DNA of 64,000 nucleotides from Chloroflexota bacterium (GTDB lineage Bacteria; Chloroflexota; Dehalococcoidia; Lucifugimonadales; UBA3495), in NCBI GenBank assembly GCA_022562475.1, contig JADFPD010000001.1, forward strand, positions 15,172-79,171, read 5' to 3'. Below are positions 1,714 to 50,581 of the stretch, in pieces; positions within the stretch are counted from its first letter, which is position 1, and each line of letters opens with the position of its first letter. The translations under genes were made by a program, and so were the position numbers. Below the pieces are notes generated by a model, which did no database searches, had not been told where the DNA came from, and saw only the letters and a list, made by a program, of their open reading frames with translations.

Positions 1714-3486
1714 CTATGCCTCATGCTGGCGGTAGCGGTTCACTATCGGCAGGCGGCGGTCTTTGCCGAAGGCGCGGTGGGTGATCTTGACGCCAGGCGG
1801 GGCCTGGCGGCGTTTGTATTCATTCCGGTCCACTGCGGCGATCACTTGCCGGACCACCTGGGGGTCGAAGCCCTGGGCCACCATGTCCTGGTAACTCAGG
1901 TCATCCTCCACGTAGGCCTCCACCACCGGGTCCAACACCTCGTAGGGCGGCAGGCTATCGGCGTCCAGTTGGTCTTCCCGCAGTTCGGCGCTGGGCGGTT
2001 TGTCGAGGATGGCCGCGGGAATCACATCATCCATCGTCCCAAAATCCCCGCCGTGCCGGTTGCGCCACCGGCATAGCTCGTAGACTGTGGTCTTGGGCAC
2101 GTCCTTTAGCACCGCGAAGCCGCCGGCCATGTCTCCGTATAGCGTGGCGTAGCCCATCGCCATCTCTGACTTATTGCCCGTGGTAAGCACGATCCAGCCG
2201 AATTTATTGGACACCGTCATCAGCACATTGCCCCGCACCCGTGCTTGAACGTTCTCCTCGGCTACGTTGGCCTCAGTGCCTTTGAACCGCTCTTCCAGCA
2301 TCTCGGTGAAGGCCCGGTGGGCCGGCTCGATGGGCACCTCCCACAGGTCCAGGCCCAGGTTCTCGGCCAACTTCTTTGAATCGCTGACGCTGCCCTCGGA
2401 CGAATAGCGGGAGGGCATGGTGATACCCACCACGTTCTCCTTGCCCAAGGCGTCCACGGCGACCGTGGCCGTTAGCGCCGAGTCCACTCCGCCCGACAGG
2501 CCGATCAGCGACTTGGTGAACCCCGACTTCCGGAGGTAGTCGCCGGTGCCCATGACCAAGGCCCGGTAGACCTCTTCGGGCCCATTCATGCCGTCTAAGA
2601 TGGGCTGAGCTTTTAGTGGGCTCTTGCTGGCAGCGCTTGCCTCGGAAACGGACATTGTTTTGGGCGCGCCCACAGCCTCGCCGGCGTTCGCCGGGCTTCG
2701 TTTCGGTCTGGCCGCAGTCTCCGGGAAGCTCAAGTCCTTTAGCAAAAGCGATTCTTGGAATGCGGGCCCTCGGGCGATCAGGCTGCCGCTGGCGTCACAG
2801 ACGATGCTGGCGCCGTCAAAGACCAGTTCGTCCTGTCCACCTACCGTGTTCACATAGGCCACGGCAACGGCGTTCTCCGAGGCGCGCTGGGCGATCATGT
2901 CTTCCCGGAAGGCCCGTTTGCCCGCGTGGAAGGGCGATGCGTTTATGTTGACGATCAACTCGGCTCCGGCTTGGCATTGGACCGAGGTTGGCCCCACCGG
3001 GTACCAGATGTCCTCGCAGATATTGACGCCGACGGCCACTCCGCCGATGCGGTAGACCGGGCACTCCGAGCCCTTCTGGAAGTAACGTTGTTCGTCGAAC
3101 ACGCCGTAGTTGGGCAGGAATATCTTGTGGTAGGTGTCAACCAACTTGCCGCCATAGCACAGCGCGGCGGCGTTGGTGACCCGCGGCCCAACCTCTTCCG
3201 ATTGCCGCTCCAATGAAAGTATGTGCACGTAGCCCAAGACAACGGCGATGCCCTTGGACGCCGCGGCCACCTTTTCCATGGCGGCCACGTTATCGGTCAG
3301 GAAGGATTTCTTGAAGAGGAGGTCTTCCGGAGGGTAACCGGTGGTGGCCATCTCGGGGAAGGCAATGAGGTCGGCCTGAGCCTCCCTGGCGCGTTCCAGG
3401 TAGTCCAGAATCTTGGCGGTATTCCCGGTGATGTCCCCTACCGTTGGGTTGATCTGGGCCAAGGCCAGGCGGAAGGTCCGTGCCAT
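1714..3486 (-). CDS. nadE: glutamine-dependent NAD+ synthetase
   Basis: N-terminal CN-hydrolase domain (FRLALAQINPTVGD, NICEDIWYP) plus a C-terminal NAD synthetase domain with the SGGVDSAL PP-loop. The start is set at MARTFRLALAQ rather than the longer track ORF. Confidence 0.93.
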   Translation of the reverse strand: MARTFRLALAQINPTVGDITGNTAKILDYLERAREAQADLIAFPEMATTGYPPEDLLFKKSFLTDNVAAMEKVAAASKGIAVVLGYVHILSLERQSEEVGPRVTNAAALCYGGKLVDTYHKIFLPNYGVFDEQRYFQKGSECPVYRIGGVAVGVNICEDIWYPVGPTSVQCQAGAELIVNINASPFHAGKRAFREDMIAQRASENAVAVAYVNTVGGQDELVFDGASIVCDASGSLIARGPAFQESLLLKDLSFPETAARPKRSPANAGEAVGAPKTMSVSEASAASKSPLKAQPILDGMNGPEEVYRALVMGTGDYLRKSGFTKSLIGLSGGVDSALTATVAVDALGKENVVGITMPSRYSSEGSVSDSKKLAENLGLDLWEVPIEPAHRAFTEMLEERFKGTEANVAEENVQARVRGNVLMTVSNKFGWIVLTTGNKSEMAMGYATLYGDMAGGFAVLKDVPKTTVYELCRWRNRHGGDFGTMDDVIPAAILDKPPSAELREDQLDADSLPPYEVLDPVVEAYVEDDLSYQDMVAQGFDPQVVRQVIAAVDRNEYKRRQAPPGVKITHRAFGKDRRLPIVNRYRQHEA

Positions 3487-3679
3487 GCATTCCCTCGTGT
3501 GTGCTTTCGCCGAGTATACAGACTTCAGAAATGACATGCCAATCTATCATGGCAAGCAACGATGAGCCTGGCTGCGAGGCCGGTGGTGGACAAGGGCTGC
3601 CTGCCGACGCTAACATTCGGACGTGAATCAGCGCGGGCGTGAAGCCCGGCGGCCCCAGACCTTATTAAGGAGAATCCCC

Positions 3680-4075
3680 ATGGAATACGCCATCAACCAC
3701 GTTCACATCAGGGCTGCGGACCCAAGGGCGTCGGCTTCCTGGTATGAGAAGATCTTCAACGCCAAGATAGTTTCGGAGCGCGAGGTCATGCCGGGCACCA
3801 TCACCATTGGCATGCAGGTCGGCGGCCCGACGCGGCTGAACATCTCTTCCCAGCCGGAGGGGTCGTCCCCCAAAAGGGCCTCCGCCGAACTCCACCAACT
3901 GGGACTGGAGCACTTCGGCTTCCACGTGGAAGACCTGGAAGCGGAGATGACCCGCCTGGAAGCCGAGGGCATCCGAGTGGTCCTGCCCCTCACCGTTACT
4001 CCCCAGGGGATCAAACTGGCCTATATCGAGGGCCCGGACGACGTGCTGATCGAGTTGGTGCAGGCCGCCGCCTGA
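3680..4075 (+). CDS. VOC (glyoxalase/bleomycin resistance/dioxygenase) family protein
   Basis: MEYAINHVHIRAADPRASASWYEKIF...LEHFGFHVEDLEAE is a typical VOC fold. AAGGAG lies upstream of the ATG at 3680. Confidence 0.85.
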   Translation: MEYAINHVHIRAADPRASASWYEKIFNAKIVSEREVMPGTITIGMQVGGPTRLNISSQPEGSSPKRASAELHQLGLEHFGFHVEDLEAEMTRLEAEGIRVVLPLTVTPQGIKLAYIEGPDDVLIELVQAAA

Positions 4076-39272: not shown

Positions 39273-39301
39273 GTAGGGGCACGGCAATGCCGTGCCCCTA
39301 C
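39273..39301. repeat. palindromic element GTAGGGGCACGGC-AAT-GCCGTGCCCCTAC, probable terminator (copy 2)
   Basis: A perfect 13-bp stem followed by TATTTTG, between convergent genes (39224 + end, 39368 - end). It belongs to the same family as 9755-9782. Confidence 0.7.
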
Positions 39302-40638: not shown

Positions 40639-41436
40639 TTAGAGCACAGCCGATGCGCCGCCGTCGAGGTTCACGGCGATGCCGGTCAGGTAGCTGGCCC
40701 GCTCCGAAGCCAAGAATGCGATGACATCGCCGGCTTCTTCGGGCTCGGCCACCCGGCCGATGGGCACGCTCCTGGCCTGGGCCAGTTCGTCGTAGAAGGT
40801 ATCGAGGGTCAGGTTGGGTTCCTTCTCTAGGCGGGCGTCATACCGGCGCTGGTGCTGGCCGCTCTTGACCAGCCCGATGCAGACGGTGGTGACCAGTATG
40901 TTTTCCTTGGCCAGGTCCTTGGACAGGCCCTTGGTGATGGCGATGCCCGCGGCACGGGAGATAGAGGTGGGCATCGAGGCTGGGCCGGGTGTCCGGCCGC
41001 CCAGGTTGGTCACGTTGATGATCCGGCCGCCGCCGACCTTCCGCATCTCAACGATGGACTCTTGCATCAGCCGGACGGCGGCCCAGACCTTCAGTTCGAA
41101 GTCGGATTGCCAGTCCTCGTGGCTCACACTCTCGAAGGGTTTGGCCATGGACGTCCCGGCATTGTTGACGATGATATCCAAACGCCCAAAGTTATCCAGG
41201 GCCGTCTTGATCATCTTCTTGGCCGCGCCCTCCGTGGTGACGTCCAAGGACAGGGGCACCACGGAGCCCTCTGTGGCCGTTTTGATCTCTTGGACCGCCT
41301 GGTCCAGCACTTCTTGGCGGCGGGCCACGATTACTACGTTGGCCCCCTCTTTGGCCATGCTCAATGCCGCCGCTTTCCCGATCCCGTCACTTCCGCCCGT
41401 GATGATTGCAACCTTGCCTTCGAGGCCCATGTCCAT
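40639..41436 (-). CDS. SDR family oxidoreductase
   Basis: ITGGSDGIGKA and NNAG motifs plus a catalytic S/Y/K region. 265 aa. Confidence 0.9.
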   Translation of the reverse strand: MDMGLEGKVAIITGGSDGIGKAAALSMAKEGANVVIVARRQEVLDQAVQEIKTATEGSVVPLSLDVTTEGAAKKMIKTALDNFGRLDIIVNNAGTSMAKPFESVSHEDWQSDFELKVWAAVRLMQESIVEMRKVGGGRIINVTNLGGRTPGPASMPTSISRAAGIAITKGLSKDLAKENILVTTVCIGLVKSGQHQRRYDARLEKEPNLTLDTFYDELAQARSVPIGRVAEPEEAGDVIAFLASERASYLTGIAVNLDGGASAVL

Positions 41437-41598
41437 AGTGGTTTCTCCTGTTTCTTAGGCGGAATCCGAGTCTAGATCAAGCCGGTGTACGCTCAGAAAA
41501 GGCCCCGGCGAATCGGCAGCCATTATAACACAGGGGTCCCCTCTGGATTACGCCTGGCGCAGCTTCGTGCGGGACCGATGTCCGGTAAGTCGAAATAA

Positions 41599-42813
41599 CT
41601 AGATCTGAATTCCCGACGCCTTCGCAACGATGTCGATATCTTTGTCGCCCCGGCCGCTGAGGCAGACCAGGATTATCTGGTCTTGGGTCAAGGTTTTTGC
41701 CAGCTCGACGGCGGCGGATACCGCGTGGGATGACTCCAGCGCCGGGATGATGCCCTCGGTGCGGCACAGCAGATGGAACGCCTCCAACGCCTGGGAGTCG
41801 TTCACCTCCCGGTATTCAGCCCTTCCGGAGTCTTTCAGGTAGCTGTGCTCCGGGCCCACTCCGGGGTAGTCCAGCCCCGCTGAGATGCTGTGGGTCTCCT
41901 GCACCTGCCCGTGCTCGTCCTGAAGCAGATAGGACATCGCGCCGTGCAGCACGCCCGGACGCCCGGCGCTCAGGGTGGCCGAATGTTTGCCGGTACCCAC
42001 TCCTTCGCCCCCGGCTTCCAAGCCCAGCAGCCGCACGTCTTCGTCGGGCACGAAGGGATGGAAGATGCCGATGGAGTTGCTGCCGCCGCCGACGCAGGCC
42101 AGCACGTAGTCCGGAAGCCGGCCTTCGGCCTCCAACAACTGGGCCTTGGCCTCCCGGCCGATGACCGTCTGGAAGTCTCGCACCATCACCGGGTATGGGT
42201 GCGGCCCCACCACGCTGCCGATCAGATAGTGAGTTGTTTCCACATTGGTCACCCAGTCGCGGATCGCCTCATTGATGGCGTCTTTCAGGGTGCGGGTGCC
42301 CGAGTCGACCGGCACGACTTCAGCCTCCAGCAGCTTCATCCGGAAGACGTTCAGCGACTGCCGTTGAATGTCCTCGCTGCCCATGTAGACGATGCATTCC
42401 AGGCCGAGCATGGCGCAGGCAGTGGCCGCGGCAACGCCGTGCTGCCCGGCCCCGGTCTCGGCGATGATCCGCTTCTTGCCCATGTGCTGGGCCAACAACG
42501 CCTGGCCTAGGGCATTGTTTATCTTGTGGGCCCCGGTATGGGCCAGGTCTTCACGTTTTAGGTAGATCTTGGCGCCGCCGCAGACGCGGGTCAGGTTCTC
42601 GGCGAAGTACAAAGCGGTGGGCCGCCCGGCGTAGGTATGTAGCAGATGACCCAGACGCTCCTGAAATTCAGGGTCCTCCTTGGCCGTACGGTAGGCCTCA
42701 TCCAACTCCGCAACGGCGGCCATCAGCGTCTCGGGAATGAATTTCCCACCGAAATCGCCGAAGCGCCCACGGTCATCAGGAAAGCGGAGGCTGGCCTCGT
42801 TTTTATCCGGCAT
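41599..42813 (-). CDS. trpB: tryptophan synthase beta chain (TrpB1 type)
   Basis: The [19 protein letters not shown] and GGGSNSIG motifs are present. The start is set at [11 protein letters not shown] (ATG 42811-42813, GAAGGA RBS). Confidence 0.95.
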
Positions 42814-42832
42814 AGATGATTCCTTCTTTCCG

Positions 42833-43516
42833 CTACGCCGCCCTGGCGGCGGCTGCCCGGGCGATCTGCATGAAATCACGTATCTTCTGATGGTCTTTGT
42901 TGCCGTCTGTTTCAACGCCGCTGGAAACGTCCACGCCCCAGGGTCTGACGGTCATGATTGCTTCTGAAACATTTTCGGGGGTTAGCCCACCGGCCAGCAA
43001 GAATGGATGGCCCGCCTGGGAGAGGGATGCAGCCACATCCCAGTCAAACCCCTTCCCGGTGCCGCCTTGGATGCCCTCGACATATCTGTCCAGCGTTACT
43101 AGGTGCCCGACCCCGCTGAATTCCTTGACCCGGGCGCCGGTCCCCGCATCGTCGGCCGACGTAGCTGACTCTGCCACGTGCACCACTTTGATCACGTCGC
43201 AGCCGACTTGGCCGGCGTATTCGACCGTTTCCTGGCCGCAGAGCTGGGCCAGGTCCAGTCCGCAAAATTTCACTATTCCGCCAACCTCTTCGATCGGCTG
43301 GTCGGCGAAGAGGCCGACGATCCGGGGAACCGGGCCGCCGGAGTTCCTGACTCCATCGACGATGACTTTGGCCTCTTTAGGCGTGATACGCCGGCGCCGC
43401 TCCGGCACGAACACCAAGCCGATGAGATCGGCCCCCGACTCGGCGGCCACCAGTGCGTCGTCCAAGGCACGGATACCGCAGATCTTTACCCTTATATCTT
43501 GCGGGTCTATGTTCAT
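42833..43516 (-). CDS. trpF: phosphoribosylanthranilate isomerase
   Basis: 227 aa with VKICGI near the N-terminus and a TIM-barrel PRAI pattern. It overlaps trpC by 4 nt. Confidence 0.9.
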
Positions 43517-44313
43517 GCCGCCGGCGTTTTCTGCCCGGTCAGCTCCCGGACCTTTTCTCCGACGTCTGGGGCAGTCACCAGGGCCTCACCGACCAAAACC
43601 GCATTGACCCTGGAGCGTTCCATCCGCCGGAGATGCTCGCGGGTGAAGATGCCGCTTTCGCTGACGATCTGCTTGCCTCTGGGCACCAGCGGCGCCAGGC
43701 GTTCAGTCACAGTTAGATCGGTGGTGAATGTGCGCAGGTCCCGGTTGTTGATGCCGATGATGTCCGCTCCGGCATCCACCGCGGTCTCCAGCTCATTCTC
43801 GTCGTGGACCTCTACCAAACACTGCATCAAGTGTGCCTGGGCGGCAGCCAGCAGCTCCTTTAGTTGGGTCGGCTCCACGATCGCCACGATGAGCAACATT
43901 GCATCGGCCCCAGCCGCCCGAGTCTCGACAACCTGGTAGGGGTCAAAGATGAAATCTTTGCGTATAACCGGCGCGCGCTGGGAGGCCCCGGTCTCCTTGA
44001 TCTGCCGCAGGTGGTCCAGTTCACCCTGGAACCTGGGGTCGGTGAGGCACGAGATGGCCGCCGCCCCGTTGCCGGCGTAGGTCTCAGCCAACTTCAGGTG
44101 GTCGAAGTTGGGCATCAGCAGCCCTCGGGAGGGCGAGGCCTTTTTAACCTCGGCGATGAGCCGCACCCCACCACCCAGCAGCGCCCCAGACAGATTCAGG
44201 GGCCGTGGCTGGCCGGCGGCAGCAGCCTCCAAGTCGGCCAGAGAAACCTGAGTCTTGCTCTCGGCCAGCTCAACTCGCTTGGCGGCAACTATTTCATCGA
44301 GGATGTTTGGCAT
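43513..44313 (-). CDS. trpC: indole-3-glycerol phosphate synthase
   Basis: LIAEVKKASPSRG, IGINNRDL and ESGI motifs. 266 aa. Confidence 0.93.
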   Translation of the reverse strand: MPNILDEIVAAKRVELAESKTQVSLADLEAAAAGQPRPLNLSGALLGGGVRLIAEVKKASPSRGLLMPNFDHLKLAETYAGNGAAAISCLTDPRFQGELDHLRQIKETGASQRAPVIRKDFIFDPYQVVETRAAGADAMLLIVAIVEPTQLKELLAAAQAHLMQCLVEVHDENELETAVDAGADIIGINNRDLRTFTTDLTVTERLAPLVPRGKQIVSESGIFTREHLRRMERSRVNAVLVGEALVTAPDVGEKVRELTGQKTPAA

Positions 44314-44315
44314 GA

Positions 44316-44522
44316 TTAGGGCAGACTTACCTCTTCTTCGTTGACCAGACTGGTGATCGAACTTAGAAGAAATTCCCGGCCGCCCTGTATCTCCAGCATT
44401 ACCGGATTTCCGGCAGCGCTGAAATGGGTAATTACCCCGTCCGATTCTTGGGCATGGTCTGCGGGTGTCTCGGAAACCTGAATGGTCAGAATATCGACTT
44501 CCCGGTTATATTTAATCTTCAT
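44316..44522 (-). CDS. DUF2283-like small protein (putative antitoxin-like partner)
   Basis: 68 aa, MKIKYNREVDILTIQVSE..., a typical DUF2283 beginning. It overlaps the upstream gene by 11 nt and ends 2 nt before trpC. Confidence 0.65.
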   Translation of the reverse strand: MKIKYNREVDILTIQVSETPADHAQESDGVITHFSAAGNPVMLEIQGGREFLLSSITSLVNEEEVSLP

Positions 44523-44766
44523 AACGGTCCTGCCTCGCTGGATAAATGGTGATAATGACCACCTCGCTGTTCTCCTCATATACTACCCGCAAGACGTGGT
44601 CCTCATCTAGTCGGAGCCGTGCAACAAATCGTCCTCCATACCCAGGAGACGACTCATGAGGGTTGGCCATGTCGTTGATCACCCTTTCAGGATCAACCGT
44701 TAATCCCCACTGGCCTAGGAGTTCGAACTTACCTAAGGCGTGCCGCGTTAATCGGATGGGTTTCAT
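44512..44766 (-). CDS. DUF4258-like small protein (putative toxin-like partner)
   Basis: 84 aa, MKPIRLTRHALGKFELLG...VVIITIYPA, matching the DUF4258 pattern. It starts 9 nt after the trpD stop. Confidence 0.65.
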   Translation of the reverse strand: MKPIRLTRHALGKFELLGQWGLTVDPERVINDMANPHESSPGYGGRFVARLRLDEDHVLRVVYEENSEVVIITIYPARQDRYED

Positions 44767-44775
44767 GATTGTTTA

Positions 44776-45792
44776 TCAGCCCCTCGCCTGGCTGACCTCG
44801 ATCATCGACTCCATTCGGTCGTTGGCCGCGCCGCTGTCGATGGCTTTGGCGGCCAGTTGAACGCCGTCCCGGATGTTAGAGACCAGGTCTCCGACCAGCA
44901 GCACCCCGGCGCTGTTCAGCAGCACGTAGTCGCGCACCGGGCCACCGGCGCCGCCCAACAACTCCCGCATGGTCTTGGCGTTGGCCGACTTGTCGCCACC
45001 ACGCACCGCCTCGATGGGCGTGATGGGCAGTCCGGTGTCCGCCACGGATAGCGTCCAATTGCTTACCTTGCCCCCGGCAACCTCCCAGACCGAGGTGTCT
45101 CCCGAAAGGGTCATCTCGTCCAGGCCGCCGTCGCCGTGGACGATGATCGAATGATGCGTGTCCAAGAGATTCAAAACCGCCGCCATCTTTTCGCCCAGTT
45201 CCGGGAAGGCCACGCCCACCAGCATCGATTGCGCCCCCGCCGGGTTGGTCAACGGCCCCAGGATGTTGAAAACGGTGCGGATGCCGATCTCCCGGCGCAC
45301 CGGTCCGGCGTGCCGCATGGAGGGGTGGAACGCCTGGGCGAACATGAACCCGATGCCGCACTCTCTGATGCAACGCTCTACGCTCTCGGGTGTAAGCTCG
45401 ATGCGCACGCCCAGTTCTTCCAACACGTCGGCGCTGCCGCAGTTGCCCGAGGCGGCCCGGTTGCCGTGTTTGGCCACCTTCAGCCCGGCGCCGGCGGCGA
45501 CGAACGCCGCCGCCGTGGAAATGTTGAATGTGTTCAGGCCGTCCCCTCCGGTGCCCACGGAGTCGACCAACATACCGTCCACATTTACCCGCAGAGCGAA
45601 TTCACGCATGACGGTGGCCATGCCGGCGATCTCTTCGGTGCTCTCACCCTTGAGCCGGAGCGCGGTCAAGAACGAGCCCAATTGGGCCTGGGTTGCCTCG
45701 CCGGACATGATCTGCCGCATGACCGACGCAGCGTCGTCCATGGACAGATGATTTCCCGAGACGACTATGTCTATCGCTTCACGGATTTCCAA
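44776..45792 (-). CDS. trpD: anthranilate phosphoribosyltransferase
   Basis: GEATQAQLGSFLTALRLKGES and DSVGTGGDGLNTFNIST motifs. TTG start with GGAG upstream. Confidence 0.93.
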   Translation of the reverse strand: MEIREAIDIVVSGNHLSMDDAASVMRQIMSGEATQAQLGSFLTALRLKGESTEEIAGMATVMREFALRVNVDGMLVDSVGTGGDGLNTFNISTAAAFVAAGAGLKVAKHGNRAASGNCGSADVLEELGVRIELTPESVERCIRECGIGFMFAQAFHPSMRHAGPVRREIGIRTVFNILGPLTNPAGAQSMLVGVAFPELGEKMAAVLNLLDTHHSIIVHGDGGLDEMTLSGDTSVWEVAGGKVSNWTLSVADTGLPITPIEAVRGGDKSANAKTMRELLGGAGGPVRDYVLLNSAGVLLVGDLVSNIRDGVQLAAKAIDSGAANDRMESMIEVSQARG

Positions 45793-45864: not shown

Positions 45865-46167
45865 TCAGATCGGGTCAAGTCGTTCAAGAGGCATCGCACC
45901 GTGATGAATCAGCAAAACTTCGACCCGGTCTTGTTCTGTCATCACGCGGTAAATGATGCGGTAACTTTGGGCTATTAACTCCCGGACATCATCGCTATCC
46001 CACTCGGAAACTACCCGGCCAGACCTGGGAAAATCCTCCAATCTTGTGGTGGCCTGATACAAGCGGTAATTGACCAAGCGGGCATATTCCGGGGTATCCC
46101 TTGCCATAAACAGATAGATGGCTTGCAGGTCATTCAGCGCACGCTCAGTCCAGACTACTTCAGCCAC
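45865..46167 (-). CDS. type II toxin-antitoxin system RelE/ParE family toxin
   Basis: 100 aa, reading VVWTERALNDLQAIYLFMARDTPEYA...IIYRVMTEQDRVEVLLIHHGA, which is ParE-like. Confidence 0.85.
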   Translation of the reverse strand: MAEVVWTERALNDLQAIYLFMARDTPEYARLVNYRLYQATTRLEDFPRSGRVVSEWDSDDVRELIAQSYRIIYRVMTEQDRVEVLLIHHGAMPLERLDPI

Positions 46168-46346
46168 TTTTCCATTCGGCGCTTCGCTTCTTCTTGGGAA
46201 ACAACCTGTCCACGGTCCGCCTGTTCGATCCCCTGCTCGATTTTGTAGAGGAGGTAAAGCCGTTCCATAGCTGATTCAACGGTGGCGTCGTCGGGCAAAT
46301 CTTGGATCGCCTTAAGAATTTGGTCTTTTACGCTCTGGTTACTCAT
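46155..46346 (-). CDS. antitoxin partner of the ParE-like toxin
   Basis: 63 aa, MSNQSVKDQILKAIQDLPDDATVESAMERLYLLYKIEQG. GGAGG lies 8 nt upstream of the ATG at 46344-46346. It overlaps the toxin gene by 13 nt. Confidence 0.7.
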   Translation of the reverse strand: MSNQSVKDQILKAIQDLPDDATVESAMERLYLLYKIEQGIEQADRGQVVSQEEAKRRMEKWLK

Positions 46347-46405
46347 GCACCGGTCCTCCACTAGCAATTTCCCGCCGTTACCTCAGGACGTTCCTTCTGC
46401 CAATT

Positions 46406-46993
46406 TTAACTCTTTACAGCGCTGTCCCTCACCTGGTCCAGAAAATTCTGCAGCAGGTGTTTTCCGTCGGGGGTCAAGATGGACTCGGGATGGAACTGTA
46501 CGCCCTCCACAGGGTGTTCTTTGTGCCGCAGTCCCATGATCAGGCCGTTGTCGGTCCGGGCGGTGACCTCCAGCGTATCCGGGACGGTCTCCGGGTAGAC
46601 GACCAACGAGTGGTACCGGATGGCTTCGAAGGGGTTGGGCAGTCCGGCCAGCACCCCGGCGCCATTGTGGTTCACCATGGAGGTCTTGCCGTGGCGAATC
46701 TCGCCCGCCCGGTCCACCTTCGCGCCGTAGACGTAGCCGATGCATTGGTGGCCCAGACAGACACCCAAAGTCGGCGTCTTGGGACCGAACCGGCGTATCA
46801 CATCGTTGGAGATCCCCGCCTCCAGGGGCGTGGCCGGCCCCGGAGATATGATTATTCCCTCCGGCGACATATCCTGAATCTCTTCCAGCGAGATCTTGTC
46901 GTTGCGGGCCACCTCAACCTCGGCGCCCAACTCGCACAGGTATTGGTACAGGTTGTAGGTGAAGCTATCGTAGTTGTCGATCATCAATAGCAT
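46406..46993 (-). CDS. trpG: anthranilate synthase component II (glutamine amidotransferase)
   Basis: MLLMIDNYDSFTYNLYQYL, GVCLGHQ and the catalytic H/E at QFHPES. Confidence 0.93.
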   Translation of the reverse strand: MLLMIDNYDSFTYNLYQYLCELGAEVEVARNDKISLEEIQDMSPEGIIISPGPATPLEAGISNDVIRRFGPKTPTLGVCLGHQCIGYVYGAKVDRAGEIRHGKTSMVNHNGAGVLAGLPNPFEAIRYHSLVVYPETVPDTLEVTARTDNGLIMGLRHKEHPVEGVQFHPESILTPDGKHLLQNFLDQVRDSAVKS

Positions 46994-47023: not shown

Positions 47024-47464
47024 CTAGAGGGTCTCCACGAACTCCAGCCGGTTGCCATCGGGGTCCTGGGCGTAGCAGGCTTTCATCGAAACTTTACCAG
47101 GGTCATCGAGTTGGGAAGCCGGGGGATTGTTGTACTTGAGACCTTTTTTGGAGGTTTCTTCGTAGAACCCGTCCAGGTCGTCCACGAAGAAAGCCAGGTG
47201 GGCAGCGCCCAGGTCATTGCGGTTAACCTTTGGGGTGCCGCTGGACGGGGAGAGGTATTGGATCAGCTCGAGCTTGTGGCCTTCGCCCTTGTCCAACATC
47301 GCCCCGTCTATATGTGCGCCAGGAAAGGCCAAGACTTGCTCGACGAACTCGCCTTGCCGCTCGAACCGTTCGCCTATTCGCATGCCCAGGACTTCGGTAT
47401 AGAACTTCGCCGACTTGCCGATGTCTTTAACCACGAACCCCGTATGAAAGAACGACTTCAACAT
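47024..47464 (-). CDS. VOC/glyoxalase family protein inserted between trpE and trpG
   Basis: 146 aa, reading FHTGFVVKDIGKSAKFYTEVLGM...AHLAFFVDDLDGFYEE. Confidence 0.85.
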   Translation of the reverse strand: MLKSFFHTGFVVKDIGKSAKFYTEVLGMRIGERFERQGEFVEQVLAFPGAHIDGAMLDKGEGHKLELIQYLSPSSGTPKVNRNDLGAAHLAFFVDDLDGFYEETSKKGLKYNNPPASQLDDPGKVSMKACYAQDPDGNRLEFVETL

Positions 47465-47483: not shown

Positions 47484-48938
47484 CTATTCTGAGCCTTCAG
47501 CCACATCGATGGCGCGCATCAGAGCGCCGGCCTTGTGGCGGGTCTCTTGGTACTCGTCCTCACCGACGCTGTCGGCCACGATTCCGCCTCCCGCCTGAAC
47601 GTACATCACCCCGTCCTTGTAGACGCCGGTGCGGAGCACCAACGCCGTGTCCATGTCGCCTGAATAGCTGAAGTAGCCCACCGCGCCGCCGTATGGCCCT
47701 CGTTTCTCGCCCTCCACCTCAGCGATTATCTCCATGGCCCGAATCTTCGGCGCGCCGGACACGGTGCCCGCCGGGAAGCAGGACCGCAGGGCGTCGTAGG
47801 AGGTCATTTCAGGCCGGAGGTCTCCTTCCACATGGGAGACCAGGTGCATCACGTGGGAGAATTTCTCCACGTCCATGAGCTGCGTGACCGACACGGTGCC
47901 GGGCCGGCTGACCCGGCCGATGTCATTGCGGCCCAGGTCGACCAACATGATGTGCTCGGCCCGTTGCTTCTCGCTGGACTTCAGTTCAGCCTCGTTGGCA
48001 TCGTCCTCTGCGGGTGTCGCGCCCCTGGGCCGGGTCCCGGCGATGGGATGGGTGGCGGCCCTGCCGTTATGGACCGTGACCACCGTCTCGATGGCCGCGC
48101 CCACGATCTGGAAGCCGTCCAGGTCCAGGTAGTACATATAGGGCGAGGGATTGATGCTGCGTAAAGCCCGGTAGATCTGGAACGGGTGGGCTTCGGTCCG
48201 GCGGGAGAAGCGCTGAGAGTTCACCACCTGAATCACATCGCCCGCGTAGATGTACTCGATGCACCTGTCGATTATCTTGGTGTACTCGTCCGGGGTGAAA
48301 TTGGACTCGGTGCTCGAGGAAACCAACTTCGCGCCCCCGTTGGACTGTAATTCCGGAGGCAGGTCCAGGGGTTGGGACAATCTGCGGACCATCTCGTCAA
48401 TCTTGGCCGTGGCCTCGGCGTAGGATCGTTCGATATCGCCATCCAGATGGACGTGGCTGACCACTTTTATATCGTGGCGTACGTGGTCAAACAGCAACAA
48501 TGTGTCGCAGAACATGAACACCGACTCGGGCACCCCCACCGGGTCTTCGGGCATCTCCGGGACCCTGGGCTCGAAGTAGCGGACCGTGTCGTAAGCCAGG
48601 TAACCCACCGCGCCCCCGTGGAAACCGGGCAGACCTTCAACCTTGACCAAGTGATACTTATCCATTTCTTCTTGGACCGGAATTAGGGGGTCGATCTCGC
48701 CCAATTCTTCTTTGGCGCCCGTCTTGGCCACCTTGTAGGGGTTGGTGCCGATGAAGCTGTAGCGGCCGATGCGTTCCCCTCCTTCCACGCTCTCCAACAG
48801 GAACGAATATGGGCCATGGGCCACCTTCAGATAGGCAGAAACCGGGGTTTCCAGGTCGGCGTTTATGGAACGGAAGACCGGCGCCAAGTTGCCTTGGCCG
48901 GCCATCTCCTTTATTTTTTCCAGTGTCGGTTGGTACAT
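47484..48938 (-). CDS. trpE: anthranilate synthase component I
   Basis: 484 aa with the SFLLESVEGGERIGRYSFIG motif and a C-terminal chorismate-binding domain (GAPKIRAMEII, GGAVGY). Confidence 0.95.
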   Translation of the reverse strand: MYQPTLEKIKEMAGQGNLAPVFRSINADLETPVSAYLKVAHGPYSFLLESVEGGERIGRYSFIGTNPYKVAKTGAKEELGEIDPLIPVQEEMDKYHLVKVEGLPGFHGGAVGYLAYDTVRYFEPRVPEMPEDPVGVPESVFMFCDTLLLFDHVRHDIKVVSHVHLDGDIERSYAEATAKIDEMVRRLSQPLDLPPELQSNGGAKLVSSSTESNFTPDEYTKIIDRCIEYIYAGDVIQVVNSQRFSRRTEAHPFQIYRALRSINPSPYMYYLDLDGFQIVGAAIETVVTVHNGRAATHPIAGTRPRGATPAEDDANEAELKSSEKQRAEHIMLVDLGRNDIGRVSRPGTVSVTQLMDVEKFSHVMHLVSHVEGDLRPEMTSYDALRSCFPAGTVSGAPKIRAMEIIAEVEGEKRGPYGGAVGYFSYSGDMDTALVLRTGVYKDGVMYVQAGGGIVADSVGEDEYQETRHKAGALMRAIDVAEGSE

Positions 48939-48955: not shown

Positions 48956-49720
48956 CTAATCGTCCGCGCCGCGCCGGCCGGAAAAGAATATGACTCCCTG
49001 CTGTACTTGGTTGGGGTCGAGACCTTCGTTCTTTATGTCATTGAGGATGCCGGCGAAAAGTTTGAACCGGACATTGCTTTTCGCCGCGTTGGTTGCCGCC
49101 GTGCTGGGGCAGAATTCAGTACATTTCTCAACAAAGCCGGGCACGCCAAGCAGCGATTCTTCAAGTTCATCCGCGTATCGGAAATCCATCTGGCCTCGGA
49201 TTTGCGCCATCCGGCGAAACATCTCGGCGGCCTGGTTCTTTTCGGCCATGCAGGGAACAACGGCCCGGAAGACGCCGCCCGGCCGCAGCAGCCGGTATAC
49301 GGCATCGAAAAGGGACGGCACAGCGTCAGCAGGCAACTCTTGGACCAGGTTGAGGCTGGTGACCACATCGAAACTCTTTTCCTTGAAGGGTAACCCGGTT
49401 GCGGCGTTTCCCTCCAACAGATTCACGCCACAACCCAACTCAGCCCTGGCCAGTCTCAGCATGTGCGGCGTCAGGTCCAGACCGGCCAATAAACCCTTCC
49501 CCTGGGTACGGTCCGCCGCCTGGCGCAACAGTTGCCCGGTGCCACAGCCCAGGTCCAGCAGGCTTCCGCCGGGACGCAGAGTCTCCAACGCCCAATCGAT
49601 ACGCTGCATCAGGGCTGCACCGCTGACGAACTGGCCTCGGTCTTCGTCGTAAGACCGGCTGTACTCGCGGTAAACCGAGCGCTTGAGCGCTGCGTAGCTT
49701 GTCTTCGATTTCTGTGTCAT
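48956..49720 (-). CDS. class I SAM-dependent methyltransferase, first gene behind the T-box leader
   Basis: LLDLGCGTG motif and RLLRPGGVF. 254 aa. It ends 17 nt before trpE. Confidence 0.85.
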   Translation of the reverse strand: MTQKSKTSYAALKRSVYREYSRSYDEDRGQFVSGAALMQRIDWALETLRPGGSLLDLGCGTGQLLRQAADRTQGKGLLAGLDLTPHMLRLARAELGCGVNLLEGNAATGLPFKEKSFDVVTSLNLVQELPADAVPSLFDAVYRLLRPGGVFRAVVPCMAEKNQAAEMFRRMAQIRGQMDFRYADELEESLLGVPGFVEKCTEFCPSTAATNAAKSNVRFKLFAGILNDIKNEGLDPNQVQQGVIFFSGRRGADD

Positions 49721-49741
49721 GAGTCTTGGGCTTTTTCCAGA

Positions 49742-49773
49742 TAAAAAAAGACCCGTCCATCAAGGGACGAGTC
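49742..49773 (-). terminator. intrinsic terminator of the T-box leader
   Basis: GACUCGUCC-CUUGAU-GGACGGGUC forms 9 bp including one G-U pair. It is followed by UUUUUUU, 20 nt upstream of the methyltransferase ATG. Confidence 0.8.
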
Positions 49774-50060
49774 AGATCGTGTTGCCACCCTATTTGCCGG
49801 CGGCTCCCCAATTGTAGACGGGGTTGTTCCGGCTTCTCGATCGGCGGGAGGGGCCCTGGTCTACTGTTGCCCCTGTGCCGTGGACCTTTAACGGCGCCCA
49901 ACCGTCACAGCCTAGTTCCGTCCCGATCACATCGAGGACTTAGATCGGCCTGCGGCTCCGGGGTCCATTCGTTCTTCTGCTCTGAGCGCCGGCTCACACC
50001 AAACCCGGCTCGCTTTGCCCCGCTGGAAGACTACTACTCCCCTTCACAGCCTTTATATAT
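49742..50060 (-). promoter_or_regulatory. T-box riboswitch leader with UGG (Trp) specifier
   Basis: On the minus-strand RNA, AGUA follows GGGG and the specifier context is GAACGAA-UGG-A-CCCC (UGG at 49965-49967). The T-box motif AAAUAGGGUGGCAACACG lies at 49778-49795. A terminator hairpin plus a U7 run follows. Confidence 0.85.
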
Positions 50061-50079
50061 ATTCGTTTGTGTAATCTTG

Positions 50080-50109
50080 AGTATAAGGTTGCCCAAAATT
50101 TAAAGTCAA
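50080..50109 (-). promoter_or_regulatory. candidate sigma-70 promoter of the T-box/trp operon
   Basis: On the minus strand, TTGACT (50104-50109) is separated by an 18-nt spacer from TATACT (50080-50085). Confidence 0.45.
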
Positions 50110-50140
50110 GTTTTCGAGGGTGGGCGGGTGATTTATTTCC

Positions 50141-50581
50141 TTAAACCGTCGGTTCTCCCAGACCGCCATGCTTCACCGGAACCGCCTCGTCTGCGCCCGG
50201 CCACGGCGGAGTGGTATGGCACAGGAACCGCAGCGGCCCATCCGGGCCGGCGCTGAACTGGAAGCTCCAGCCGGTGGGAATTACCAAGGCATCGCCGGGC
50301 ATTACGTCTGCCGGTGGAATGCTCTCCGAGGCGGCATCTGGTGGGCAGCGCCAGACCTTTCCGGCGCCCTCCAATACGTACCAGATTTCTTCCACCGTGC
50401 GGTGAAAGACCGGGCTGGTGACTTCGCCGCGGCCGAGCGTAACCTCAACCAAACTACTTTTCGTTGCGCCTTGGTGGGCGTCCGCCAGCAGTCGTATCTC
50501 CGAGCCGTCGGGGGCTGTTACGTCGGGCTTTGGCTTTCGGTGCCCGTGGGGAGGAACGGGATAGTCGTTAGAAGCGCTCAT
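50141..50581 (-). CDS. cupin domain protein
   Basis: PVFHRTVEEIWYVLEGAGKVW...GDALVIPTGWSFQF is a cupin fold. The start is set at MSASNDY (the RBS-like GAAGGGG), and the upstream TTG is an alternative. Confidence 0.75.
   Translation of the reverse strand: MSASNDYPVPPHGHRKPKPDVTAPDGSEIRLLADAHQGATKSSLVEVTLGRGEVTSPVFHRTVEEIWYVLEGAGKVWRCPPDAASESIPPADVMPGDALVIPTGWSFQFSAGPDGPLRFLCHTTPPWPGADEAVPVKHGGLGEPTV

Follow-up and report, generated by a model that had tools for sequence, protein, structure and literature searches.

What occupies the 420 nt between a cupin gene and the next gene on the minus strand of this genome, and what does it have to do with the tryptophan genes that follow? The window, by which we mean the whole 64-kb stretch of DNA analysed here, contains a cupin gene whose stop lies at 50141, and the next ATG is at 49720, which agrees with the gap length given in a preliminary description of this DNA. 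In standard pipelines, gaps of this kind stay unannotated or are filled with spurious ORFs. The preliminary description read the gap as a leader of the T-box type, preceded by a promoter. When the sequence of 49600-50300 was read directly on the minus strand, all the leader elements that had been claimed, the promoter included, were found in their places within 49743-50109. We propose that this leader is very probably a canonical transcription-attenuating T-box riboswitch specific for tRNA-Trp. The features on which this proposal is built are collected in Table 1.

Table 1. Positions of the leader elements, the downstream genes and the mini-ORF of the relatives (window coordinates, except for the last line, which refers to relative L001)
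Feature	Position	Strand	Basis and remarks
Full-length RF00230 T-box match	49760..50056	-	83.8 bits, E 1.1e-18, model positions 1-219 of 219
-35 box TTGACT	50104..50109	-	Consensus scan; TTGACA at the equivalent position in nearly all relatives
-10 box TATACT, 18-nt spacer	50080..50085	-	Consensus scan; positional conservation in relatives
Stem I	49955..50050	-	RF00230 alignment; GA (K-turn) motif at base, AGUA/GAA specifier loop, AGCGA bulge, UGGUGUGAG distal loop
Specifier codon UGG (Trp)	49965..49967	-	Covariance-model specifier slot; conserved A at 49964
Stem II	49906..49952	-	RF00230 alignment; 21-nt apical insertion relative to the model
Stem IIA/B pseudoknot, including F-box CCGUUA	49882..49904	-	CGG...CCGUUA aligned to the model
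Extra hairpin in the linker between IIA/B and Stem III	49842..49880	-	RNAalifold; insertion relative to the Rfam consensus
Extended Stem III	49796..49833	-	Outer helix covaries
T-box sequence and antiterminator, 7-nt bulge UGGCAAC	49763..49795	-	RF00230 alignment, helices 10-11, fold
Intrinsic terminator: 9-bp stem, 6-nt loop, U7	49743..49773	-	Scan, fold, covariation
Class I SAM-dependent methyltransferase, 254 aa, first gene	48956..49720	-	Pfam Methyltransf_25/11
trpE (anthranilate synthase component I)	47484..48938	-	Profile match
Glyoxalase/VOC-fold gene between trpE and trpG	47024..47464	-	Profile match; same position in most of the 49 relatives
trpG	46406..46993	-	Profile match
Toxin-antitoxin-like pair between trpG and trpD: 70-aa ORF and ParE-family toxin	45865..46367	-	PF05016, E 5.8e-16
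trpD	44776..45792	-	Profile match
Two overlapping small ORFs between trpD and trpC: 84 aa (no family match) and DUF2283	44316..44766	-	PF10049, E 4e-9
trpC, trpF, trpB	41599..44313	-	trpB TIGR00263, 646 bits
Mini-ORF of the relatives	L001 3920-3946		Equivalents in L002, L003, L005-L007, L009, L010, L012-L014, L016, L018; variant in L021

At the Rfam gathering thresholds, the whole 64-kb window gives no match to any family, and the RF00230 match emerges only when the local region is searched with E-value reporting. That match is significant over the full length of the model, with UGG and the conserved A in the specifier slot. The window leader nevertheless misses the curated gathering score of the family (83.8 < 93), which is an operational annotation cut-off and not a structural property. 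The same was found for seven diverse relatives (L016, L022, L028, L032, L033, L038, and L044), all of which match RF00230 over its full length, with 46.5-86.7 bits, and none of which reaches 93. Compared with the model, Stem II is 21 nt longer at its tip, the linker that follows the F-box has about 45 additional nt, and Stem III holds 28 more; it is these structured insertions that account for the shortfall in score. Since all eight clade leaders tested lie below the gathering score, default Rfam annotation misses the clade systematically. Every structural feature of RF00230 that can be tested on sequence is present in the leader; only the operational cut-off is missed. A permissive Rfam scan across the trp operon gave no second T-box, and no internal T-box was found in the 613-nt trpG-trpD gap or in the 462-nt trpD-trpC gap.

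The relatives are 49 loci retrieved with TrpE from species-representative genomes, with TrpE identities of 74-92%. All 49 come from MAGs of the Chloroflexota/Dehalococcoidia, and one of these carries the label SAR202 cluster. The suggestion that this lineage uses T-box control for its trp genes is borne out by nhmmer, which finds a leader homologue ahead of trpE in every one of these Dehalococcoidia/SAR202 relatives (49/49). When the Rfam consensus structure was projected onto a MAFFT alignment of 50 sequences (window plus 49 relatives), 93.9% of the cells were found in standard pairs, and 17 of 43 pairs had changed on both sides, as against 3-8 in controls in which the partners were slid by 1-3 columns; none of 500 shuffles reached the observed values. 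Helices 1-5 of Stem I are 90-100% paired, with 10 of their 20 pairs changed on both sides. Stem II (helix 6) is 86.7% paired, IIA 99.3%, and IIB 100%, with compensatory change in two of the four IIB pairs. RNAalifold, run with no Rfam structure as input, recovers Stem I, Stem II, Stem III, and the terminator. Judged from the alignment, then, the leader pattern is far beyond chance, given the RF00230 E-value together with covarying conservation in 49/49 loci. The minimum-energy fold of the whole leader as a single sequence was no more stable than those of its shuffles (z = -0.43) and did not reproduce the T-box fold. RNAalifold also offered a long-range pairing between GUGGC in the T-box bulge and GCCGC immediately 3′ of Stem I; we rejected it as unsupported, since none of its five pairs shows a double-sided change and two of them clash with the base of Stem I.

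Could the leader be a decayed relic, no longer functional, with the trp genes controlled by other means? The scores below the gathering value, in the window and in the seven relatives, are what such a relic might give, and so are the large insertions relative to the model. However, the functional motifs are invariant or nearly so over 50 sequences in which TrpE identity goes down to 74%, and compensatory changes maintain all the helices, including those of both alternative 3′ conformations. Moreover, the score deficit comes from structured, covarying insertions and not from loss of core elements. We regard decay as highly improbable.

The 3′ part of the leader contains the elements of a switch. 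The T-box sequence AAAUAGGGUGGCAACACG lies at 49795-49778, and the 9-bp terminator hairpin, GACUCGUCC/GGACGGGUC, at 49773-49750 is followed by U7 at 49749-49743, both as had been described; an independent scan returned the same terminator. The distance from the U-run to the first gene had been given as 20 nt and is in fact 22 nt, to the ATG at 49720. The 5′ arm of the terminator overlaps the 3′ arm of the antiterminator, with nucleotides 49773-49763 shared, and when the two alternatives are folded they prove to be mutually exclusive, and both covary. The terminator fold has -15.1 kcal/mol (z = -5.0) and the antiterminator fold -5.1 kcal/mol, which, on these computed energies, is an OFF-by-default arrangement. 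Both values lie within the ranges recorded for transcriptional T-boxes in TBDB. In the alignment, the terminator is 99.3% paired and has two compensatory pairs (GAC...GUC replaced by AGC...GCU in three sequences), and the hairpin with its U-tract is conserved in 50/50 sequences. Alignment column 529 has a partner in both states, column 520 when the antiterminator forms and column 549 when the terminator does; it varies, yet standard pairs are largely kept in both conformations. The antiterminator bulge carries UGGC at 49787-49784. This UGGC is found in 49 of the 50 sequences, with UGGU in the remaining one, and GGGUGG is invariant in all 50.

An alternative is a translational T-box, as in the actinobacterial ileS leaders, where tRNA frees the ribosome-binding site. 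Actinobacterial translational T-boxes have a truncated Stem I, whereas the Stem I considered here is full length and has its distal platform. Further, a GC-rich 9-bp hairpin that runs directly into U7 is the signature of an intrinsic terminator, and it is present in 50/50 sequences; the hairpin has no Shine-Dalgarno sequence, and the ATG is well past the U-run. It is true that T-boxes outside the Firmicutes are often translational (TBDB) and that the methyltransferase ATG lacks a visible strong Shine-Dalgarno sequence. Against the terminator signature, we nonetheless judge translational control by this leader to be very unlikely.

Which tRNA would a transcriptional T-box at this locus sense? 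Stem I has motifs that align to the model consensus throughout: the UGAA/GGA base, AGUA, GAA-UGG-A, the AGCGA bulge, and the UGGUGUGAG loop. On the 5′ side, GGGG at 50042-50039 is followed by AGUA, and CCCC at 49963-49960 pairs with this GGGG, both as the preliminary description had it. Its choice of a Trp specifier also holds, in that the covariance model slots UGG at 49967-49965, then A, and then the closing CCCC strand, and GAAUGG is invariant in 50/50 aligned sequences. The specifier loop, GAAUGGAC, also holds an overlapping AUG and an overlapping GGA, so that a neighbouring frame would specify Met or Gly and another tRNA would be sensed. It is, however, UGG that occupies the codon slot of the covariance model, with a purine immediately 3′ and the closing CCCC helix thereafter; UGG is invariant, and the downstream genes make tryptophan. 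The discriminator points the same way. Bacterial tRNA-Trp has G73, elongator tRNA-Met A73, and tRNA-Gly U73, and the variable bulge base C suits a G73 discriminator. According to TBDB, the tRNAs cognate to Trp T-boxes carry G at the discriminator, and Trp T-boxes have C or U at the variable bulge base opposite it. Even though the -1 and +1 frames are also considered by TBDB, a shifted specifier is exceedingly unlikely in this leader. No tRNA genes were found within the 64-kb window or the 49 genome loci searched.

Upstream of the leader, an independent scan gives the same sigma-70-like site, TTGACT-18-TATACT, that had been proposed as its promoter, with 10 of 12 consensus positions matched. 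The consensus scan returned two promoter-like sites in 1.7 kb, where 0.4 would be expected. Among 47 relatives that could be anchored, nearly all have TTGACA, an 18-nt spacer (17 nt in a few), and TAnnnT; the TAnnnT box is located 24-27 nt upstream of Stem I, and the sequence of the spacer diverges freely. A conserved -35/-10 footprint around a divergent spacer supports a real promoter. The second promoter-like site, with 9/12 matches, lies inside the leader at 49840-49811, and we return to it below.

The leader is elaborated between the IIA/B pseudoknot and the T-box sequence. In the extra hairpin of the linker, all six inner pairs have changed on both sides, and its loop carries GUAGAC at 49864-49859. 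The apical loop of Stem III carries GUCUAC at 49819-49814, which is complementary to GUAGAC and is nearly invariant, even though no position of this loop is conserved in the Rfam model. Pairing between the loops was assessed in a plain MAFFT alignment of the sub-region, fitted to no structure, for 41 sequences. The six loop-loop pairs are 93.9% paired, and two of the six show compensatory change: L032 has GCAAAC with GUUUGC, i.e., two double changes, and L049 has GCAGAC with GUUUGC. Three sequences retain one of the pairs through G·U, and both loops are absent from the short-leader relatives L044 and L045. A metagenome scan with the T-box and terminator core pattern, which is a generic one, added about 45 members to the family, nearly all with the GAAUGG specifier and many with a hairpin in the linker; among them, no additional compensatory change of independent origin was seen in the loop-loop pairs. 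The comparison suggests a kissing contact between the extra-hairpin loop and the Stem III loop, for which the compensatory support comes from one lineage only. If this contact is real, the kissing module could set the orientation of the domain that senses the tRNA 3′ end relative to the decoding domain. Our literature search found no description of a comparable tertiary module for characterised T-boxes, and the extra covarying hairpin, with its apparent contact to Stem III, may be of interest to those who work on T-box structure.

Two further observations concern this region. The L028 leader (3411-3865), which has UGGU for UGGC and much larger insertions in Stem II and in the linker, also differs in both loop sequences; these, CCGGCC and GGCCGG, might nevertheless be able to pair. 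As for the internal promoter-like site at 49840-49811, we considered and rejected it as the reason for the conserved Stem III loop: an RNA initiated at this site would be without Stem I, and the changes in L032 and L049 keep the RNA complementarity but not the -10 box.

What, then, would the leader control? The preliminary description placed the leader upstream of the trp operon, but the first gene after it is not a trp gene; it encodes a generic class I SAM methyltransferase with no NCBIfam equivalog match. Among the window and the 49 relatives, only the window, L008, and L046 have this gene in intact form. L004 and L011 have shorter remnants, which keep the 5′ and 3′ ends at much closer spacing, apparently as a result of internal deletions. 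In most relatives, the methyltransferase is absent and the end of the leader lies 10-130 nt from trpE. By this comparison of loci, the methyltransferase is a lineage-specific insertion between the leader and trpE. That the leader controls only this inserted gene, which directly follows the terminator, with the trp genes under a promoter of their own, is scarcely credible, given that the same leader stands directly before trpE, with no methyltransferase, in most relatives, that the trpE ATG follows the methyltransferase stop after only 17 nt, and that no promoter-like or terminator-like site was found in that 17-nt interval.

The claim that the leader regulates the whole operon stands in part. 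The genes trpE, G, D, C, F, and B do follow on the same strand, but the claim was overstated, as trpA is missing from the cluster and two small gene pairs are inserted within it. trpA was found neither adjoining trpB nor among 10 further mid-sized ORFs of the window that were tested; after trpB, in its stead, comes a short-chain dehydrogenase (40639-41598, minus strand). The two small gene pairs may bring promoters of their own, and the pair made up of the 84-aa ORF and DUF2283 is possibly a toxin-antitoxin pair. Homologues of the small cassettes, with 27-92% identity, occur at the same two intergenic junctions in many relatives, and their distribution suggests that the trpG-trpD and trpD-trpC junctions have either received toxin-antitoxin-like genes repeatedly or housed them for a long time. 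Downstream of the trp region, between convergent genes, there is a perfect 13-bp GC-rich hairpin at 39273-39301 (GTAGGGGCACGGC AAT GCCGTGCCCCTAC), which is probably a bidirectional terminator.

For a tRNA-Trp-specific, transcription-attenuating T-box, the course of events would be as follows. Transcription would start about 7 nt downstream of TATACT, near 50073, and the nascent leader would fold Stem I, Stem II, the IIA/B pseudoknot, the extra hairpin, and Stem III. UGG at 49967-49965 would pair with the tRNA-Trp anticodon, CCA, and the tRNA elbow would stack on the distal Stem I platform. In an uncharged tRNA, the 3′ end (GCCA) is free; it would pair with UGGC at 49787-49784 and so stabilise the weak antiterminator, and polymerase would go on to transcribe the methyltransferase gene, trpE, the glyoxalase-fold gene, and trpG, and probably also trpD, C, F, and B. 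With a charged tRNA, the antiterminator would be left unstabilised, the stronger terminator would form, and transcription would stop at about 49743-49749. We infer tRNA binding, charge sensing, the start site, and the extent of read-through from established T-box biology.

In 14 relatives that lack the methyltransferase, the interval from the T-box terminator to trpE holds a conserved mini-ORF of 8-9 codons, MG[D/N]WR-x-C-x(-P). This mini-ORF comes with a GGAG-type Shine-Dalgarno sequence of its own, and its UGG-CGA is invariant; in L021, a divergent form that also contains W is present. RNAalifold pairs GCUGC of the mini-ORF with GCAGC, located between the trpE Shine-Dalgarno sequence and ATG, and L021 shows one compensatory change in this pairing (GCGGC with GCCGC). 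The mini-ORF is absent from the window, where the methyltransferase fills its position. A possible role for the mini-ORF would be that of a second, translational Trp sensor, comparable to rtpLP of B. subtilis. It is tempting to propose that the trp T-box of SAR202 combines a clade-specific 6-bp kissing module, formed by the linker hairpin and the Stem III loop, with a second tier in sister genomes, the Trp mini-ORF; we offer this only tentatively, as a possibility that falls short of being probable.

How does this leader compare with known systems? T-boxes upstream of trpE and of a trpB-like gene were reported in Dehalococcoides CBDB1 and 195 by Wels et al. 2008 (PMC2494555), and T-boxes are recognised in the Chloroflexi generally (PMC3766115). 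The Dehalococcoides trpE elements share with the present leader the class Dehalococcoidia, the RNA element family, and the target trpE. By their description, they differ from what we find here, which is a leader in a SAR202-type marine MAG lineage, with a covarying extra hairpin, an extended Stem III, and an Rfam score below the gathering value. Our literature search found no paper linking SAR202 with a T-box. The trp operons of Firmicutes have Trp T-boxes, and in bacilli two or three of them often precede trpE as a tandem array (PMC2494555; for Firmicutes Trp T-boxes before trpE, Gutierrez-Preciado 2005, as cited in PMC2494555). With these, the present leader has in common the UGG specifier, the terminator/antiterminator switch, and the control of a trpE-led biosynthetic operon; in contrast to the tandem T-boxes of bacilli, it is a single T-box.

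The two-tier layout of the relatives also has a counterpart. As Chen & Yanofsky 2003, 2004 are presented in PMC10327191, the rtpA-ycbK (anti-TRAP) operon of B. subtilis has a Trp T-box followed by a leader peptide with Trp codons that controls translation. On that account, the combination of T-box and Trp mini-ORF seen in 14 relatives and, in divergent form, in L021, but not in the window, is alike in layout, whereas the mini-ORF of the relatives has one Trp codon instead of three and precedes trpE instead of a regulator gene. A clade-restricted extra stem on an otherwise canonical T-box is likewise known from the staphylococcal glyS T-boxes, in which stem Sa is in the terminator/antiterminator domain, as outlined in PMC9177973. 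Set beside that outline, the insertion described here is located in the linker before Stem III and apparently contacts the Stem III loop.

Thus, T-box control of trpE is already known in the Dehalococcoidia, and what is possibly new is the structural elaboration of the SAR202-type leader. The understanding of T-box regulation is unchanged, and the biology is ordinary. For the organism, the leader explains how tryptophan synthesis would be coupled to the charging of tRNA-Trp in a SAR202-type Dehalococcoidia genome, and it extends a control reported in Dehalococcoides to an uncultured marine group.
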